Source: Candidatus Thorarchaeota archaeon
Lineage (GTDB): Archaea > Asgardarchaeota > Thorarchaeia > Thorarchaeales > Thorarchaeaceae
Assembly: GCA_003345555.1 (NCBI GenBank)
Contig: PRDJ01000036.1
Coordinates: 19,809-83,808, forward strand
Direction of reading: 5' to 3'
DNA: 64,000 bases
The notes beneath the pieces are model-generated. The model ran no database searches and had not been told where the DNA came from. It was given only the letters and a program-made list of their open reading frames with translations. Shown here piece after piece: positions 36,666-62,010 of the stretch (the stretch's first letter is position 1; every line of letters starts with the position of its first letter). A program made the position numbers and the translations under genes.

Positions 36666-38005
36666 ACGCATACGCAGCTGGCACTTTCGTGATGGGCATA
36701 ACATCCTTTGCCAACTACCTAGCAGGCACGCAAGTTGTGATAGGGCCGTGGGCATGGCGCTTTTGGCCATCATACGCCTATGTCGTCTTAGCCATACTTG
36801 CCCCGGCGTTCATTTCGATAGCTGCGTTGATCGTCCTTGGGCGAGAGCATTTCATGATCCCGACCCTTTTTGCATTGGTGCTTGTTAGCTACGTTTGGAT
36901 ATTGCCAATGATACCAAACCCAATCGATGCTCGTGATGCGACTGCAGATGTGTCCTCCGTCATGTACATACCCGCAGTCCTGCTATTCGGGTACATATTG
37001 GCCAAAACGAGAAAAGCCACCAGTCTCGGGCTTTTCTACGTGGTCACATTCTATCCTCTCTATCGGTTGACTGTTATCGGACTGTCTGCCGGGCCGGTGG
37101 ATCTCAGCATCGTCTTTCTTGCCCTGCGGCTGCTGGCGCCAGTAATTGCCGCCGTCGCATTCCAAGTACGTGATATAGGAATATCATTCGAACTGGCGGG
37201 GTATGGGATGGCATACGCGCTTATTGCATTCTGGCTTTCGTATCTCATGATATCCCCTGTTACCGACCCTGTGCTGATTGCATCTCTCACTCTGATTGCT
37301 CTCGGATCGACAATCGGATTTGGTACGGGTGCATACACGTATGCCCGCTGGAAGAAGAACAGGCTCGGAGCAACATTCGTTCTATTCCTGTCGTTTACTT
37401 TCACAACATGGGCGTTCATACTGGTAGCCCTTCAGGGCCTAGGTCTTGCAACAGCAATCTACTACACCTATGCTTACATTTTCCTGACCTTCATTGCCCT
37501 CATGTGTTTCAATATGGCCGCGTATCTTGCTCTGGAATGGAGGTCGCTTCTCTTGTTGCCCGTCCTGATGATACTGCCGCTATTGTTCTTCTTGTCGATC
37601 CAATACCCTAGTGACCCACGCCTTAATCCGTTCTTCATCCCGGCCATCAGTATAACAGGTGTCGTTGCAGCGATTGTACCTGTTGCGTTGTATCTTTACC
37701 TGTGGCAAAGAATGAGGCAAGCAAAGGCGCCAGCCGCGAGCAGACCCCTGTTGTTGGCCACTGGAATCCTTGGATTGACTCTTGCTTTGGCTGCAGGCCC
37801 CATTACAATGGGTACAGAGGTTCTGAATGTGGCAAATCCAATCAGCGGAGTTCTCACATTCATCGCTTTTCTAGCATGGTGGTTGGCAGTTACTGGTAGG
37901 AACGAACGTTTCATGAAATGGTTGCACTCCACATTCCTGAAACCCAAGCCTGCTCCGTCCACGCCTCCGCCAGCGGGAGCTGCCTCTCAGCCCGGTGGTG
38001 CCTGA
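36527..38005 (+). CDS. Polytopic membrane protein (about 13 TM), unknown function. Lies between the Roadblock and GTPase genes.
   Basis: 492 aa, highly hydrophobic, Pro/Ala-rich C-terminal tail. The stop is 2 nt before the GTPase ATG. Confidence 0.55.
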   Translation: MAIEVYVAAEFLMFVSLIAASFAIAGYTRRRIRELPEEDKKLGKPLYAYAAGTFVMGITSFANYLAGTQVVIGPWAWRFWPSYAYVVLAILAPAFISIAALIVLGREHFMIPTLFALVLVSYVWILPMIPNPIDARDATADVSSVMYIPAVLLFGYILAKTRKATSLGLFYVVTFYPLYRLTVIGLSAGPVDLSIVFLALRLLAPVIAAVAFQVRDIGISFELAGYGMAYALIAFWLSYLMISPVTDPVLIASLTLIALGSTIGFGTGAYTYARWKKNRLGATFVLFLSFTFTTWAFILVALQGLGLATAIYYTYAYIFLTFIALMCFNMAAYLALEWRSLLLLPVLMILPLLFFLSIQYPSDPRLNPFFIPAISITGVVAAIVPVALYLYLWQRMRQAKAPAASRPLLLATGILGLTLALAAGPITMGTEVLNVANPISGVLTFIAFLAWWLAVTGRNERFMKWLHSTFLKPKPAPSTPPPAGAASQPGGA

Positions 38006-38007
38006 AG

Positions 38008-38538
38008 ATGTCTGCCAGAATCCCCGTATTCAAGACTGTTCTGATCGGGGAGGGAGGGGTGGGCAAGACCAGTATCACGCTGCGGTACACGGAGAATCGT
38101 TTCGAAGATAGTATGCGCATGACGGTTGGTGCTAACTTCGCTTCCAAGAAGGTGACTATTGGCAGCACACAGATGACCATCATGCTTTGGGATCTGGGAG
38201 GACAGCCCCGATTTCATGACGTGGTACAGGACTACTTCAAGGGAAGCAAGTTCGGAATCGCAGTCTATGACGTCAATCGACTCTACACTTTGGAGCGGCT
38301 TGAGGAATGGATTCATCGATTGAGAGAAGTTGCGCCGGACTGTGACCTCCTCATTGTCGGTAACAAAATAGACGAGCGAACCAATGACGGTGGAGTAGCC
38401 CTTGCCGAAGGGATTGCGTTCGCATCCAAGTTCGGCGCTGACTGCATTGAGGTTTCAGCTAAGACAGGTCAGGGAGTAAATGAGATTTTCGAGACGGCTG
38501 CAAGGCTTCTCATCAAGAAGTACATACAGAAGGTATAG
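38008..38538 (+). CDS. Rab/Ras-like small GTPase (176 aa)
   Basis: G1 'LIGEGGVGKTS'. Switch I 'RMTVGANF'. G3 'LWDLGGQPRF'. 'VYDVN'. G4 'GNKID'. G5 'SAKTGQGV'. Confidence 0.8.
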   Translation: MSARIPVFKTVLIGEGGVGKTSITLRYTENRFEDSMRMTVGANFASKKVTIGSTQMTIMLWDLGGQPRFHDVVQDYFKGSKFGIAVYDVNRLYTLERLEEWIHRLREVAPDCDLLIVGNKIDERTNDGGVALAEGIAFASKFGADCIEVSAKTGQGVNEIFETAARLLIKKYIQKV

Positions 38539-56767: not shown

Positions 56768-58621
56768 ATGGCTAAGAAAGAAGGGAAACCCAAGAAGGAA
56801 GTGAAGAAGCCTGCTCCAGCTCCGGCAGAGGAACCGAAGCCCGCTGCTCCAGCTCCACCCAAACCGGCTCCTGCAGCTCCAGCTCCTGCTCCGAAACCAG
56901 CTCCTGCACCCGCTCCACCGAAACCAGCTGCCGCTCCGCCTAAGGAGGAGAGGCCTTGGCTCAAGAGCTATGTTGGAAAGACTCCACCGGACATCAAGAT
57001 TCCAGATGGACCACTATACGCCGAACTTGACAAGGCTGTAGCGGAGTTTCCAAACAACGTTGCCCTCTACTACGAAGGAATCAAGATCACATACAAGCAA
57101 CTTGGCACGTTCGTAGACAAGGCGGCGAATGGATTCGCATCAATTGGAGTCAAGAAAGGTGATACAGTCGCTATAATGCTTCCAAACTGCCCTCAGTTCG
57201 TGATATCCTACTTCGGCGCGCTCAAGTGTGGTGCCACAGTCACGCCAATCAACCCACTAAGTGTCGCAAAAGAGCTTAGGATATACTTGCAGGACACGAA
57301 AGCAAAGACAATCGTCGTTCTCAACTTCTTCTATCGTCTTGTCGAAGAAGTTCGCAAGGAATCCGACCTTGAAAACGTCATAGTCACAGCCGGTTGGGAT
57401 CATCTGGGCTCAGCAAAGAGAGCTCTTGCTCCGAAAACCGTTTACAAGAAGGAAATGAAGGAAGTCCCGCCTCTTCGCAAGGGCGACCGCAACTGGCTCG
57501 ATTTTCTAGCGGCCGCCAAGCCCGAAGCACCGAAAGTCACCGTCGACCCTGCTAGGGATATCGCTGTCTACCAGTTCACAGGCGGAACCACCGGAACTCC
57601 CAAAGCAGCAATGCTGACACACAACAACCTGAAGGCGAATTGCTGCCAATGCAGTGCCTGGATGGATTGGATTGCCACAAGAGGCAAAGAAATCATGGTC
57701 GCGGCACTTCCCTTGCAGCATATCTTCGGACAGACCGTGTCCATGAACCTTGCCATAGCATGGGCGAGCGGGATAATCCTGATACCCAATCCGCGTGACG
57801 TCAAGCATCTGCTATCTGAGATTGACAGCATCAAGCCAACCTTCTTCCCCATAGTGGCTACTATGGCAATTTCGGTCTATAGTCATCCTGAGGTGAAGAA
57901 GTACAAGCTGACCTCATTGAAGCTGGCAATCGCAGGTGCCATGGCGTTACCTGCCGAAGTCACTAAGCGGTTCGAGGATGCAACCAACGCTATTATCATC
58001 GAAGGGTATGGTCTCACTGAGGCTTCGCCAGTTACTCATGCGAACCCCTTGGACAAGAGTCTCAGGAAGATTGGCTCGATTGGACTGCCGTTCCCAAGCA
58101 CCTACAGCAGGATAGTGGACCTTGAGAACTCATCCAAGGTTCTAGGACCTGACGAAATCGGTGAACTCTCCGTCAAGGGTCCTCAAGTCATGCTTGGCTA
58201 TCACAACCGACCCGATGAGACCTCAGCCGTATTGTCTAGAGACGGTTGGCTGCTCACAGGTGACATAGCTAAGATGGACAAGGACGGATGGACATACATA
58301 GTCGACCGCAAGAAGGATTTGATCAATGCCGCTGGCTACAAGGTCTGGCCAAGGGATGTAGAAGAAATCCTATTCGAGCATCCCGCGGTCAAGGAGGCTG
58401 CTGTCATTGGCGTTCCTGACAAGGTTCGCGGCGAGACTGTGAAGGCGTTCATCATTCTCCAACCCGGCAAGACTGCGACGGAGGAAGACATCCGCAAGTT
58501 CTGCAAAGAGAAGATGGCCATCTACAAGGTTCCAACAACAGTTGAATTCGTCGATTCCTTGCCAAAGACCATGGTAGGAAAGGTCTTGCGCAGAGAACTG
58601 CGAGAGAAGACTCAGACATAG
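56768..58621 (+). CDS. Acyl-CoA synthetase (AMP-forming) with a Pro/Ala/Lys-rich N-terminal low-complexity extension
   Basis: 'YQFTGGTTGTPKAAMLTH' AMP-binding motif and 'GYGLTEASP'. The N-terminal ~60 aa are (PAPAPKP)n. Confidence 0.8.
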   Translation: MAKKEGKPKKEVKKPAPAPAEEPKPAAPAPPKPAPAAPAPAPKPAPAPAPPKPAAAPPKEERPWLKSYVGKTPPDIKIPDGPLYAELDKAVAEFPNNVALYYEGIKITYKQLGTFVDKAANGFASIGVKKGDTVAIMLPNCPQFVISYFGALKCGATVTPINPLSVAKELRIYLQDTKAKTIVVLNFFYRLVEEVRKESDLENVIVTAGWDHLGSAKRALAPKTVYKKEMKEVPPLRKGDRNWLDFLAAAKPEAPKVTVDPARDIAVYQFTGGTTGTPKAAMLTHNNLKANCCQCSAWMDWIATRGKEIMVAALPLQHIFGQTVSMNLAIAWASGIILIPNPRDVKHLLSEIDSIKPTFFPIVATMAISVYSHPEVKKYKLTSLKLAIAGAMALPAEVTKRFEDATNAIIIEGYGLTEASPVTHANPLDKSLRKIGSIGLPFPSTYSRIVDLENSSKVLGPDEIGELSVKGPQVMLGYHNRPDETSAVLSRDGWLLTGDIAKMDKDGWTYIVDRKKDLINAAGYKVWPRDVEEILFEHPAVKEAAVIGVPDKVRGETVKAFIILQPGKTATEEDIRKFCKEKMAIYKVPTTVEFVDSLPKTMVGKVLRRELREKTQT

Positions 58622-58849: not shown

Positions 58850-59410
58850 CTATCTGTCAGGATGGAGGATATCAGTTCGGAGGTTCCGTATCAGGCAGTG
58901 TATCTCAGGTCGGCCCAGCATCTTACGGCGTGCTTCAGACATATTGTTAATGACACACGCAACCCCCACTACGCTAGCGCCGAGCTTCTGCACGACCCTC
59001 GCAACAGCAAATACAGTCGTCCCCTGAATAAGCCAATCATCTACGATAGCAACTCTGTCCCCGGGTGAGATGGAGTCTGAGACCAGCGCGAGTCTTCTGT
59101 CAGCGAATCTATCTGAAGGTAGAAATTCCACAGGTCTACTATAATCATCAGGTAGGTAAGCAATCGAACGAGCTGGAACGATTCCGCAGCCAAGGTAGTA
59201 AGCAATTGCACTTCCCAAGGCCAATCCTCTTTGTTCAATACCGATTATCTTGTTTGGTTTGAGCTCCACGATTGGTTTGGCTAGGGCCATGACAGCTTCG
59301 TGGAAGATTCTTGGATTCTCTAGCAGCCTGCTTATGTCACAGACAGCTTTGCCGGGTGATGGCCAGTCCTTGATTACCTCGACGTAGTCTCTGAAATCAA
59401 TCTCTGCCAA
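58850..59410 (-). CDS. apt: Adenine phosphoribosyltransferase-like PRTase
   Basis: 'RVAIVDDWLIQGTTVFA' PRPP-binding motif. N-terminus 'FRDYVEVIKDWPSPGKAVCDISRLL'. Confidence 0.6.
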   Translation of the reverse strand: MAEIDFRDYVEVIKDWPSPGKAVCDISRLLENPRIFHEAVMALAKPIVELKPNKIIGIEQRGLALGSAIAYYLGCGIVPARSIAYLPDDYSRPVEFLPSDRFADRRLALVSDSISPGDRVAIVDDWLIQGTTVFAVARVVQKLGASVVGVACVINNMSEARRKMLGRPEIHCLIRNLRTDILHPDR

Positions 59411-59595
59411 ATCGCCAACCTCTCACTCTATCTTCGAAAGTAAGCCGGCTCCTGAGATACGATACGGGTACAAAAACGTTCGCAACGTCCTTTGGGAGCT
59501 CAGCGAAATGGTTATCACACGTCACCGGTATTCTTCGATTGAAACTAGTTCAGTAAGAGGCGGCAAACCTGATAGTACCTGGGACAACTGTTGCA

Positions 59596-60828
59596 GTGAC
59601 TCTCTTGCCGGGTTACGTCGAGGTCCGTGATAAGGGCATTCTAAGAAAGAAGATACCGACAAGCAACAGATCATTTGAAAACGTGTGCTCCGATCTTGAG
59701 CGCTTCTTCAAGGACGCAGGAAAGAAGCTGCCGCCCGGCGTTGTAAGAGAAGCTCTACAGAGAATAGGTGTTCCTCAGGTTAAGATGATAATCTCACAGG
59801 CGGAGCCACTAGAAGAATCACAAGCAAAGGTTGTCAAGGAGATTTCAGCCTCGGTTGAGGCTAGGAAGAAATCAAAGAGAAAGCCGAAGGTAGCCAAGAG
59901 TACAAGTAAGACAGAGGAAGTTCCTGAAGCGGCCAAGAAAGAACCAGCAGGTGACATATCTGGCATTGAGTATCACGACGTTGAAGAAGCTTTGAGCGTA
60001 GTGGAATCCCTGAGTGATTCGTTTCTCTCATCCAAGTCCAAGGATGCATCCCGTGCAACTCCTGACAAGGGTAAAATCAGTATCGAAGTCGAGGGAACCG
60101 AAGAGATAGTCGGTGCTCCCCGCTTGCGGGCGGCCATGCCAGAACAAGTGCCGCATGCGATCAAGGCCACTGCTGAACAGTTTCCGCCCTCACCGACGGA
60201 GTCCGGCAGACCCAAGGAGGCGGCTCAGTCTCCCACACGCATACCCAAGACGCAGGTGATTGCAAAGGCCCTGATTCTGGGGGAAGAAGGCGTAGGCAAG
60301 TCATCATTGATAGCAAAGGGAGGCCTCAAGCCGCTCGAGTCAAGCCCTGAGGCAGAGAAGAGACCGTATGTCACGGAGAAAGTGATTGAGGTTGACAACT
60401 ACAGAGTCAGGCTGCAGGCATGGCTATTTGACGCAGCTTCGGCCTCAAGAGTGACAAGAAAGGCGTTCTATGAAGATACTGGTCTCGTCATCATTGTGTA
60501 TAGCACATCAGACCGTTGGTCATTCGAGAGCATTGATTTCTGGCTCAAGGAGAGCATATCGGCCTCTGGGATACGACCTCCTGTGGTTATCGTCGGGAAC
60601 AAGACCGACGTTCGAGCCAACTCACCCCTCGTGGACAGGGAGCCTCCGGTATCACCAGAAGAGGGATTGAAGTTGGCACATGAAATAGCCTCGAAGCTCG
60701 CATCGGGGCAGAAGACTCATCCAGTAGCCTTCATTGAGACCTCGTGCCTCACTGGCCAAGGTGTTGAGGACCTGTTTAGGATGGCTGCAGAGCTTTTCGT
60801 CAAGTCAATCAATCGACCGAAAGCATAG
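59596..60828 (+). CDS. Divergent Ras-like small GTPase with a ~200-aa Lys/Glu-rich N-terminal extension
   Basis: G1 'LGEEGVGKSS'. G4 'GNKTD'. G5 'ETSCLTGQGV'. G3 is degenerate ('WLFDAASA', no Gly or Gln). GTG start. Confidence 0.6.
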   Translation: MTLLPGYVEVRDKGILRKKIPTSNRSFENVCSDLERFFKDAGKKLPPGVVREALQRIGVPQVKMIISQAEPLEESQAKVVKEISASVEARKKSKRKPKVAKSTSKTEEVPEAAKKEPAGDISGIEYHDVEEALSVVESLSDSFLSSKSKDASRATPDKGKISIEVEGTEEIVGAPRLRAAMPEQVPHAIKATAEQFPPSPTESGRPKEAAQSPTRIPKTQVIAKALILGEEGVGKSSLIAKGGLKPLESSPEAEKRPYVTEKVIEVDNYRVRLQAWLFDAASASRVTRKAFYEDTGLVIIVYSTSDRWSFESIDFWLKESISASGIRPPVVIVGNKTDVRANSPLVDREPPVSPEEGLKLAHEIASKLASGQKTHPVAFIETSCLTGQGVEDLFRMAAELFVKSINRPKA

Positions 60829-60963: not shown

Positions 60964-61353
60964 TTGACTGGGAAGAGTAAAATAGGCGCTGGTCTCTCAC
61001 CCGAATTGGCGGGCATAGCATATACGAGTGGAATGGTGATTACGACGCCGGACTTGTGCGAGAGTTGCGGACAAGAGATAGCACCATTCAAACCAGCCAA
61101 GACTCTCGATGAGAGTTACTCGAATGACGAACAAAAGAGACTGAGCATATGTGAGGATTGCTTCAAGAAGCGGTTCAAAGTGACGACCAAGAGGAGTAGT
61201 GGCTATGGAGGCACAATCTATGACCTGGAAGAAAGACCTGCCCCCCGTTTTGGCATCGGCAGCAAGAAGCTCAGTTGCCTGAAATGCACGTGGGTTGCAT
61301 GGACTGAGGAGGGCCTTGCCGTTCACATGAACAGGAGACATAAACCACAGTGA
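60964..61353 (+). CDS. Small protein with a C-terminal C2H2-like zinc finger
   Basis: 'CLKCTWVAWTEEGLAVHMNRRH', with upstream 'CESCG...CEDC'. Confidence 0.35.
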   Translation: MTGKSKIGAGLSPELAGIAYTSGMVITTPDLCESCGQEIAPFKPAKTLDESYSNDEQKRLSICEDCFKKRFKVTTKRSSGYGGTIYDLEERPAPRFGIGSKKLSCLKCTWVAWTEEGLAVHMNRRHKPQ

Positions 61354-61365
61354 TGGAGTCCTTGC

Positions 61366-62010
61366 TCAACTGCCTACGGCTGCCTGACTCTTCTCTTTGA
61401 CAATTTCATGACCCGATAGGCCCACTCCTCTGACTCTGGAAGCCGCGGTCTCAAGCATGCCAATCCTGTAGGTTGTCGTCCGTGGACCGAGACCCTGAAG
61501 CCATTCAAGCCCGGCCAGATCCAAACGGTTGTTGTGCAGAAAGTAAACCTTCAAGTCAGAGACCAAAGCCGCGCGCCTGTCAAAGAAACCGACAATGATT
61601 CCAATAGTTGGTGCTGCGAAGGCAACCATCACCCATATGGCGGCCAACGGGTCGCTATTGAAGTACTCGTAGAAGAACAAGTACCCTGAGATGACGGGCT
61701 GTACAAGAGCTAGCAGGACCAAGAGCAGAGCCACGTGTTGGGTCGCATCGTCGCTCCCGAGCCCCGACAGCCCGATTACATCTTGATTTGGCGTAACAAG
61801 ATACACGAGCACTGCTCCAGAGGAGATACCCACCACGAGCGCCGAGGCAGCAATCAACATGAGATATGTAATCGGTGACTCAGTCCACACATCGGGAAAT
61901 CCTATGGAGGCCTGGATCAACAGTGACACACCGATAATTGCAGCACCAACGGCAAACCCTCTCCAACTGAAGAACTCGTATCGTTCCCCATGGAGAACTC
62001 CCTCAGACAT
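61366..62010 (-). CDS. Membrane protein (about 6 TM), unknown function
   Basis: Hydrophobic ORF. Confidence 0.4.
   Translation of the reverse strand: MSEGVLHGERYEFFSWRGFAVGAAIIGVSLLIQASIGFPDVWTESPITYLMLIAASALVVGISSGAVLVYLVTPNQDVIGLSGLGSDDATQHVALLLVLLALVQPVISGYLFFYEYFNSDPLAAIWVMVAFAAPTIGIIVGFFDRRAALVSDLKVYFLHNNRLDLAGLEWLQGLGPRTTTYRIGMLETAASRVRGVGLSGHEIVKEKSQAAVGS

Follow-up and report, generated by a model that had tools for sequence, protein, structure and literature searches.

We identified, in a 64,000-nucleotide stretch of DNA from a Candidatus Thorarchaeota archaeon (contig PRDJ01000036.1, positions 19,809 to 83,808; hereafter, the window), a gene for an atypical Ras-like protein in which the pocket for the guanine nucleotide is retained and the residues of the hydrolysis-driven switch are degenerate. 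We favor the reading, with a probability of approximately 0.55 on the evidence of the sequence and its relatives, that the protein is a nucleotide-holding, non-cycling pseudoGTPase that would serve as a scaffold or adaptor and not as a molecular switch. PseudoGTPases are defined by a GTPase fold and the loss of at least one G motif (Stiegler and Boggon, PMC5593906), and are classified as nucleotide-free (class i), nucleotide-bound without hydrolysis (class ii) or retaining activity (class iii) (PMC5593906). Both halves of the definition describe the protein studied here: the fold is present and G2 and G3 are lost family-wide.

A list of the open reading frames (ORFs) in the six frames places the gene on the forward strand from a GTG at 59596 to 60828. 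The 410-aa product matches "hypothetical protein C4K47_04510" from a Candidatus Thorarchaeota metagenome-assembled genome at 100% identity and has ~200 full-length homologs (98-100% query coverage, 36-70% identity), nearly all of them labeled Thorarchaeota. The gene is single-copy, with one locus per genome in 53 species-representative genomes that are, again, nearly all Thorarchaeota-labeled, and the uninterrupted frame and the architecture recur in more than 140 homologs from 53 species. It is a real gene, specific to the Thorarchaeota (Asgard archaea), and the alignments indicate that its protein sequence is under purifying selection. From the N- to the C-terminus, the product comprises a basic N-domain, a disordered linker, an acidic helix, a beta-like motif, a second disordered linker and a Rab-like G domain. 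Residues are numbered from a proposed CTG start at 59569 unless tied to the 410-aa ORF; motif statistics refer to 141 non-redundant homologs, and the alignment and the multiple sequence alignment (MSA) used for AlphaFold2 (AF2) hold 117 sequences.

Retained nucleotide pocket and degenerate switch

The proposed coding sequence (CDS) and the G-domain features within it are as follows.

59569..60828, + strand: proposed full CDS on comparative grounds, 419 aa plus stop, CTG start (annotated start GTG 59596, 410 aa)
60250..60825, + strand: Ras/Rab-like G domain, residues 228-419 (Pfam Ras, AF2, Foldseek, phmmer)
60280..60306, + strand: G1 (P-loop) GEEGVGKSS; G238, E239, V242, G243 and K244 invariant in 141/141
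60421..60444, + strand: degenerate G3 (switch II) WLFDAASA, family consensus W-S-F-D-x-A-V-K; no Gly in either register
60484..60555, + strand: beta4-alpha3 segment LVIIVYSTSDRWSFESIDFWLKES, with the strongest conservation in the whole protein (mean column identity 0.83)
60598..60609, + strand: G4 NKTD (guanine specificity); N344 and D347 in 141/141, K345 in 140/141
60736..60747, + strand: G5 ETSC; S392 in 141/141

The Ras-superfamily fold is recovered by sequence and structure searches alike. The Pfam Ras model (PF00071) matches residues 224-399 of the 410-aa ORF above its gathering score (E=9e-18; 64.8 bits, cut-off 21.6), with weaker Pfam matches to Roc and Arf on the same protein and none in its first 223 residues, and phmmer retrieves Rab14 and others at E ~5e-13. 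AF2 models the domain with predicted local distance difference test (pLDDT) values of 96-98, and Foldseek superposes it at template modeling (TM) scores of ~0.8 on Rab, Rho, the Thorarchaeota Rab 7EZE and REM2. The NCBIfam small_GTP model scores 18.3 bits, below its cut-off of 42.5. A preliminary description of this DNA had counted the protein as the second small GTPase of the window, and this is borne out: the other one, at 37918..38538, has a canonical WDLGGQ, and the two share 24% identity (BLASTP). The GTPase at 37918..38538 (+ strand) also carries canonical GEGGVGKT and NKID motifs and matches PF00071 with 135 bits and, more weakly, Gtr1/RagA.

The NKxD of G4 and the G5 motif of the canonical Ras superfamily are both present. 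The preliminary description had reported G1, G4 and G5 as intact, which holds for this protein (GEEGVGKS, NKTD and ETSC) but fails for G1 across the family, because the residue that follows the P-loop Lys is Ser or Thr in only 14 of the 141 homologs (~10%). This residue, at position 245, is the equivalent of the Mg2+-ligating Ser17 of Ras. It is a Ser in the protein of the window, and the family tally reads R39/E26/G18/S14/H14/K13/Q10.

The DxxGQ box of G3, described earlier as degenerate, reading "FDAASA" and lacking Gly and Gln, is indeed so, and reads WLFDAASA with its flanking residues. W285, F287 and A290 are invariant and position 288 is Asp in 140/141, followed by V119/S11/A11 at position 291 and K79/R21/N11/Q10 at position 292, which is therefore basic (K/R) in 100/141. 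The WDTAGQE of Rab14 (HMMER) and the WDLGGQP of the other window GTPase (BLASTP) align to WLFDAAS without gaps. In this register, Asp57 of Ras falls on a Leu that is Ser in the family, Gly60 on the variable Ala289 and Gln61 on the invariant Ala290. An alternative register with a two-residue insertion, which lays D-x-A on D-T-A, matches Gly60 to V/S/A and Gln61 to K/R/N/Q. None of the 141 homologs has a Gly at the switch-II position in either register, and the DxxG and catalytic Gln of a canonical switching GTPase are missing. Nor did re-alignment bring to light a canonical G3 elsewhere: the HMMER alignment to Rab14, the BLASTP alignment to the other window GTPase and the family MAFFT alignment agree and reveal no shifted DxxG, and a regular-expression scan was also negative. 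A D..G near beta3 occurs in 1/141 members, off register, and looks like chance. In the AF2 model, beta3 ends at residue 286 and a short helix spans residues 287-292.

Switch I is affected too. No column between alpha1 and beta2 has Thr in more than 21 of the 141 homologs, and the switch-I Thr of Rab14 faces a variable Glu in the HMMER alignment, so that a conserved counterpart of Ras Thr35 is absent. As read from the alignments, the degeneracy is a fixed trait of the family and extends beyond G3. Because of the motif statistics over the 141 members, we consider that the equivalents of Ser17, Thr35, Gly60 and Gln61 are not under selection and that the guanine/phosphate pocket is. The earlier suggestion that the protein may be a pseudo-GTPase fits this pattern, with the loss of the switch-II Gly and Gln fixed in the 141 homologs and the pocket invariant, and draws further support from the loss of the switch-I Thr and the Mg2+-binding Ser.

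Ranked by mean column identity, the beta4-alpha3 segment comes first, followed by the helix (0.80), the N-domain (0.71), the whole G domain (0.67) and the linkers (~0.36). The beta4-alpha3 segment has ten invariant residues (Y311, D315, R316, W317, S318, F319, S321, F324, W325 and E328).

From these patterns we infer that the G domain would keep GTP or GDP bound more or less permanently, without hydrolysis, in a pocket kept by the P-loop backbone glycines and Lys, the NKxD and the G5 Ser. The hydrolysis-driven switch would be lost together with the Mg2+-binding Ser (in most members), the switch-I Thr, the switch-II Gly and the catalytic Gln. The selected function would then be binding, not the switching of a loaded spring, and it would probably take place through the invariant beta4-alpha3 segment (DRWSFESxDFWxxE), the tethered helix and the N-domain. 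A co-distributed zinc (Zn)-finger protein encoded just downstream is a candidate partner; alternatively, the basic N-domain may recognize a polyanionic surface (RNA or membrane). In Ras itself, the S17N and G60A mutants bind nucleotide or guanine nucleotide exchange factor (GEF) and cannot switch. The family carries natural equivalents of both mutations.

N-terminal modules and start codon

An extension of 227 aa, including a folded domain of its own, precedes the G domain.

59569..59793, + strand: N-terminal folded domain (N-domain), residues 1-75, three beta-strands and two helices, basic (net +6)
59794..59979, + strand: linker 1, residues 76-137, Lys/Glu-rich (34%), predicted disordered (pLDDT <50)
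59980..60027, + strand: conserved acidic amphipathic helix VEEALSVVESLSDSFL, residues 138-153 (AF2 helix, pLDDT ~80)
60061..60114, + strand: short beta-like motif K-x-I-x-I-x-x-x-G-x-E-E-I, residues 165-182, in linker 2

The extension had been described as some 200 aa of Lys/Glu-rich disordered sequence. Disorder is predicted for residues 76-137 and 154-227, but residues 1-75 are folded and residues 138-153 form a helix; likewise, the Lys/Glu-rich label suits linker 1 but not the extension as a whole, in which Lys and Glu make up 22%. The full-length AF2 model, built with the 117-sequence MSA, has a mean pLDDT of 79. Within it, the N-domain reaches 90-96 (89.5 when modeled alone), with strands at residues 8-13, 16-21 and 24-30 and helices at 36-49 and 58-66. 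Its invariant residues are E18, R20, D21, G23, K27, K28, L54, P56, G67 and P69. Searches for relatives of the N-domain in Pfam (E<=10), NCBIfam and PHROGs, by a profile search of PDB sequences and with Foldseek against the PDB (E<=0.001) returned none. Furthermore, out of 1.84 billion representatives a profile of the domain drew no more than 42 clusters, and these are nearly all proteins of 405-565 aa with the same architecture, or fragments. To call such an extension atypical for prokaryotic GTPases, as the preliminary description did, is fair given that the profile finds nearly nothing besides this one architecture. Three repeat proteins, which could have placed the N-domain in other architectures, matched a stretch of only 25-30 residues and were dismissed as spurious.

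The remainder of the extension alternates conserved short motifs and variable sequence. Linker 1 ranges from 35 to 250 aa across the family. The helix that follows has the family consensus D-I-x-x-A-L-x-A-V-E-S-L-S-D-S-F-M, in which A141, L142, V145, E146, S149, D150 and F152 are invariant over the 117 sequences. Linker 2 (residues 154-227) is predicted to be disordered apart from the beta-like motif inside it, where I172 and G176 are nearly invariant and the mean column identity is 0.57, compared to 0.35 in the flanking linker; AF2 models this motif without confidence.

The N-domain profile also retrieved three distant members (P0144, P0148 and P0136) that sit outside the conserved gene neighborhood of the family and have lost the P-loop Lys (GVGMQS, QVGVKS and DVGMSS, respectively). 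Yet they retain the N-domain, the helix motif and a DRWS[FY].S..[FY]W segment, and selection therefore appears to act on the binding surfaces, not on catalysis. In P0136 (locus L060, 5001-6698; P-loop DVGMSS), tandem ETKVEAP(A/T)(I/T) repeats enlarge the linker to give a protein of 565 aa. The same contig encodes a protein with a faint match to the Arp2/3 P21-Arc family.

The true start of the gene is probably CTG 59569, 27 nt upstream of the annotated GTG, with initiation at a CUG. We propose the CDS 59569..60828 because the upstream codons match the family N-terminus, and because of the tally of first codons, the synonymous-only changes and the constant upstream geometry. The nine codons upstream of GTG 59596 read LIVPGTTVA and, with the GTG read as Val, yield LIVPGTTVAV, a sequence that is conserved at the N-terminus of the family and belongs to beta-strand 1; a start at the annotated GTG would cut away part of this strand. 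An in-frame TAA lies at 59554-56, five codons above the CTG, with no ATG, GTG or TTG in between. Over 53 loci (L007-L059), the codon of the first residue is CTG in 24, TTG in 19, ATG in 9 and GTG in 1. In 11 of the CTG loci, no canonical start lies in frame ahead of the CTG; two of these have a stop codon right before it, and three have no canonical start until 38 codons further on. Over the ten codons, the window differs from another locus (L005) by 4 synonymous and 0 non-synonymous changes.

Two putative signals precede the CTG.

59504..59518, + strand: conserved promoter-like element CGAAATGGTTATCAC, resembling a B recognition element (BRE) and TATA box, ~64 nt upstream of the proposed start; putative function
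59556..59560, + strand: putative Shine-Dalgarno-like AGAGG, 8 nt before CTG 59569

The sequence GAAAnnGTTA is found at -60..-64 in 38/53 orthologous loci and anywhere in -50..-67 in 44/53. This conserved CGAAACAGTTA(A/T)(G/C)A element near -60..-64 keeps the same geometry whether the first codon is ATG, TTG, GTG or CTG, and GGAG or GAGG occurs at about -17..-9 in most of the loci. The pair looks like an archaeal BRE/TATA promoter with a Shine-Dalgarno site and would thus give a leadered mRNA of ~25-30 nt, with transcription predicted to begin near 59540. As the host is an archaeon, scans for sigma-70 promoters and intrinsic terminators were uninformative.

Conserved gene neighborhood

The order of the genes around the locus is constant in 53 genomes: an adenine phosphoribosyltransferase (APRT)-like phosphoribosyltransferase (-), the gene of interest (+), a ~103-aa protein (+), a ~210-aa membrane protein (-) and an ABC/FtsX transporter. 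In the window, the small downstream gene is the following.

61033..61353, + strand: 106-aa protein with a Zn-ribbon (CxxC...CxxC) and a C2H2 finger (CxxC-x12-H-x4-H); candidate partner by synteny

Wherever the sequence extends far enough (44/53 loci), the Zn-finger gene follows directly downstream in the same orientation, and in locus L052 it still adjoins the GTPase gene though the other neighbors are displaced. Its family comprises 83 homologs, nearly all labeled Thorarchaeota and often with adjacent locus tags. No curated family covers the protein, and the 83 members have a single precomputed Pfam hit. Two further motifs of the protein, SGYGGTIYELEE and PRFGLGS, are conserved. Its frame opens at TTG 60964 in the ORF list, but the homologs favor ATG 61033. 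The arrangement suggests a functional link between the Zn-finger protein and the GTPase-like protein. Among the conserved neighbors there is no gene resembling a GTPase-activating protein (GAP) or a GEF, and none that is roadblock-, longin- or TBC-like.

The flanking genes are conserved as well. At 61366-62010 (- strand), a predicted membrane protein of 214 aa is convergent with the Zn-finger gene, with 12 nt between the stop codons; it occupies the same position in all loci at ~50-80% identity, and no Pfam or NCBIfam family was found for it. On the other side, a 186-aa phosphoribosyltransferase (58850-59410, - strand) is divergent from the GTPase gene, always head-to-head with it, and is 64-97% identical across the Thorarchaeota. 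It is nearest to adenine phosphoribosyltransferase models, with 109 bits against an equivalog cut-off of 224. Further upstream, an AMP-binding (acyl-CoA synthetase-like) protein begins with a Pro/Ala/Lys low-complexity extension of ~60 aa, KPAPAPAEEPKPAAPAPPKP... (56768-56950, + strand). Here, too, an otherwise ordinary enzyme carries a long tail of low complexity at its N-terminus.

Alternative readings, known relatives and meaning

Several observations weigh against a nucleotide-holding scaffold that does not cycle. The RGK proteins (Rad/Gem/Rem) lack the switch-II Gly and Gln yet hydrolyze GTP slowly (class iii; PMC5593906). The protein of the window retains Ser245 and may bind Mg2+-GTP normally, and unconventional chemistry could come from the invariant D288 and from K/R at position 292. 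As to the partner, the neighborhood is conserved over more than 10 kb, and the synteny with the Zn-finger gene may partly reflect class-level genome conservatism. A GTPase of the RGK-like class iii that is still active, with hydrolysis that is slow or assisted by catalytic groups that a partner supplies in trans, is a contender to be taken seriously, if an unlikely one. In such an enzyme, D288 and K/R 292 would substitute for the chemistry of Asp57 and Gln61, as the conservation of this region (D288 in 140/141, A290 in 141/141, a basic residue at 292 in 100/141) would allow. The strict conservation of the nucleotide pocket, the RGK precedent of a divergent G3 with activity kept (PMC5593906) and the presence of REM2 among the structural matches (28% identity) also speak for activity. 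They must be set against a Mg2+ ligand position that is hypervariable (R/E/G/H/K/Q/S), the absence of a switch-I Thr, paralogs that tolerate the loss of the P-loop Lys, and conserved neighbors that include no GAP-like (roadblock, longin or TBC) gene. The preliminary description had also raised the possibility that hydrolysis depends on a GAP. We regard this as less likely, because a GAP can supply a catalytic residue but cannot replace the gamma-phosphate sensors Thr35 and Gly60, through which hydrolysis is turned into a change of conformation.

A pseudoGTPase without any nucleotide, as in class i (CENP-M or the pG1 domain of p190RhoGAP), would keep G1, G4 and G5 only for the stability of the fold. 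The loss of the Ser17 equivalent in ~90% of the members, the distant paralogs without a P-loop Lys and the subthreshold small_GTP score all agree with this view. However, GxxGVGK, NKxD and the G5 Ser are conserved at ~100% in 141 sequences that are only ~40% identical, which is hard to explain without ligand binding and makes a nucleotide-free state improbable. Least probable by far is an artifact, be it a decaying pseudogene, two genes wrongly fused into one or a canonical G3 masked by faulty alignment. The unusual motif alone would suggest it; the comparative data refute it, as the frame is continuous, the architecture recurs in more than 140 homologs and 53 species, the protein sequence bears the marks of purifying selection, and the three independent alignments (HMMER, BLASTP and MAFFT) agree, with no DxxG in any register.

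The non-cycling adaptor that we favor is of a kind already known, an atypical Ras-like protein or pseudoGTPase, and it can be compared with several systems. Rab proteins, including the Thorarchaeota Rab (PDB 7EZB/7EZD/7EZE), are its best sequence matches (Rab14, Ypt6 and Rab7, E ~1e-12) and its best fold matches (TM ~0.8), with G1, G4 and G5 in common. Only its beta3 "xLxVW" and beta4 "IIVYS.SD" segments are Rab-like, and it shares with the Thorarchaeota Rab (PMC10933270) the lack of a C-terminal prenylation Cys. Unlike Rabs, it has no DTAGQ, switch-I Thr, RabF1 or RabF3, its Mg2+ Ser is not conserved in the family, and an N-terminal extension of 227 aa with a folded domain precedes a G domain that is 21-26% identical to theirs. 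It is not a Rab by the RabF1-F5 motifs and C-terminal Cys: RabF1 and RabF3 are absent and the C-terminus, ...SINRPKA, has no Cys.

The RGK proteins resemble it in their Ras-like fold, their divergent switch I, a G3 that is missing the canonical Gly and Gln, and regulatory motifs borne on terminal extensions, and REM2 (3CBQ) is among the Foldseek matches at 28% identity. RGK proteins keep the P-loop Ser/Thr and Mg2+ and hydrolyze GTP. In addition, they are metazoan, their G3 is DxWE, and their extensions, which bind calmodulin, 14-3-3 and membrane, have no relation to the N-domain described here. With a G3 of FDxAV and no C-terminal extension past alpha5, the protein of the window does not belong among them, and the resemblance is one of analogy. 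In Rnd and RhoH the departures are confined to the positions of Gly12 and Gln61, with DxxG, Thr35 and Ser17 still in place, whereas the whole sensor set is gone in the window family. Rnd and RhoH are class-ii pseudoGTPases (PMC5593906) and would be alike in the predicted permanent holding of a nucleotide and in acting by binding. The class-i pseudoGTPases (CENP-M, pG1 and pG2 of p190RhoGAP, fungal dynein LIC) also use the GTPase fold as a scaffold, a state that P0144, P0148 and P0136 approach; no such loss of G1 (Gly and Lys), G4 or G5 is seen in the protein of the window or in its 141 close relatives. For the N-domain, the small beta-alpha domains of eL28, Mak16 and cS23 (PSRP-3) offer a topological resemblance only; no Foldseek match at E<=0.001 and no Pfam or profile match ties it to Ribosomal_L28e or Mak16-like families.

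A search of the literature library for papers linking Asgard archaea with pseudoGTPases found none, and the structural study of the Thorarchaeota Rab (PMC10933270) does not treat this family. What appears to be undescribed is the architecture, the orphan N-domain, the loss of the entire sensor set throughout the family with a kept pocket, the class-wide conservation and the linkage to the Zn-finger gene. As a tentative extension, the two genes may form a Thorarchaeota module in which a nucleotide-locked adaptor, translated from a CUG in about half of the species, pairs with a dedicated Zn-ribbon/C2H2 partner and is anchored by its basic N-domain to RNA or membrane. If true, the module would represent the first prokaryotic pseudoGTPase family with a new N-terminal fold to be described, in an adaptor built in a eukaryote-like manner from folded domains, disordered linkers and conserved short linear motifs. 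Until a function or a partner is demonstrated, the finding carries limited practical weight; the orphan domain and the Zn-finger protein are offered for functional study, and the first codons of the family allow CUG initiation in an archaeon to be studied cleanly by comparison. Asgard small GTPases are usually read as forerunners of the switches of eukaryotic membrane traffic. One Asgard class may have evolved and kept the opposite use, that of a switch-stripped Ras-like domain in a multi-module protein with disordered linkers and short conserved motifs, a design commonly associated with eukaryotes, and the family would thus be a natural experiment on which residues of the G domain matter once catalysis is abandoned.

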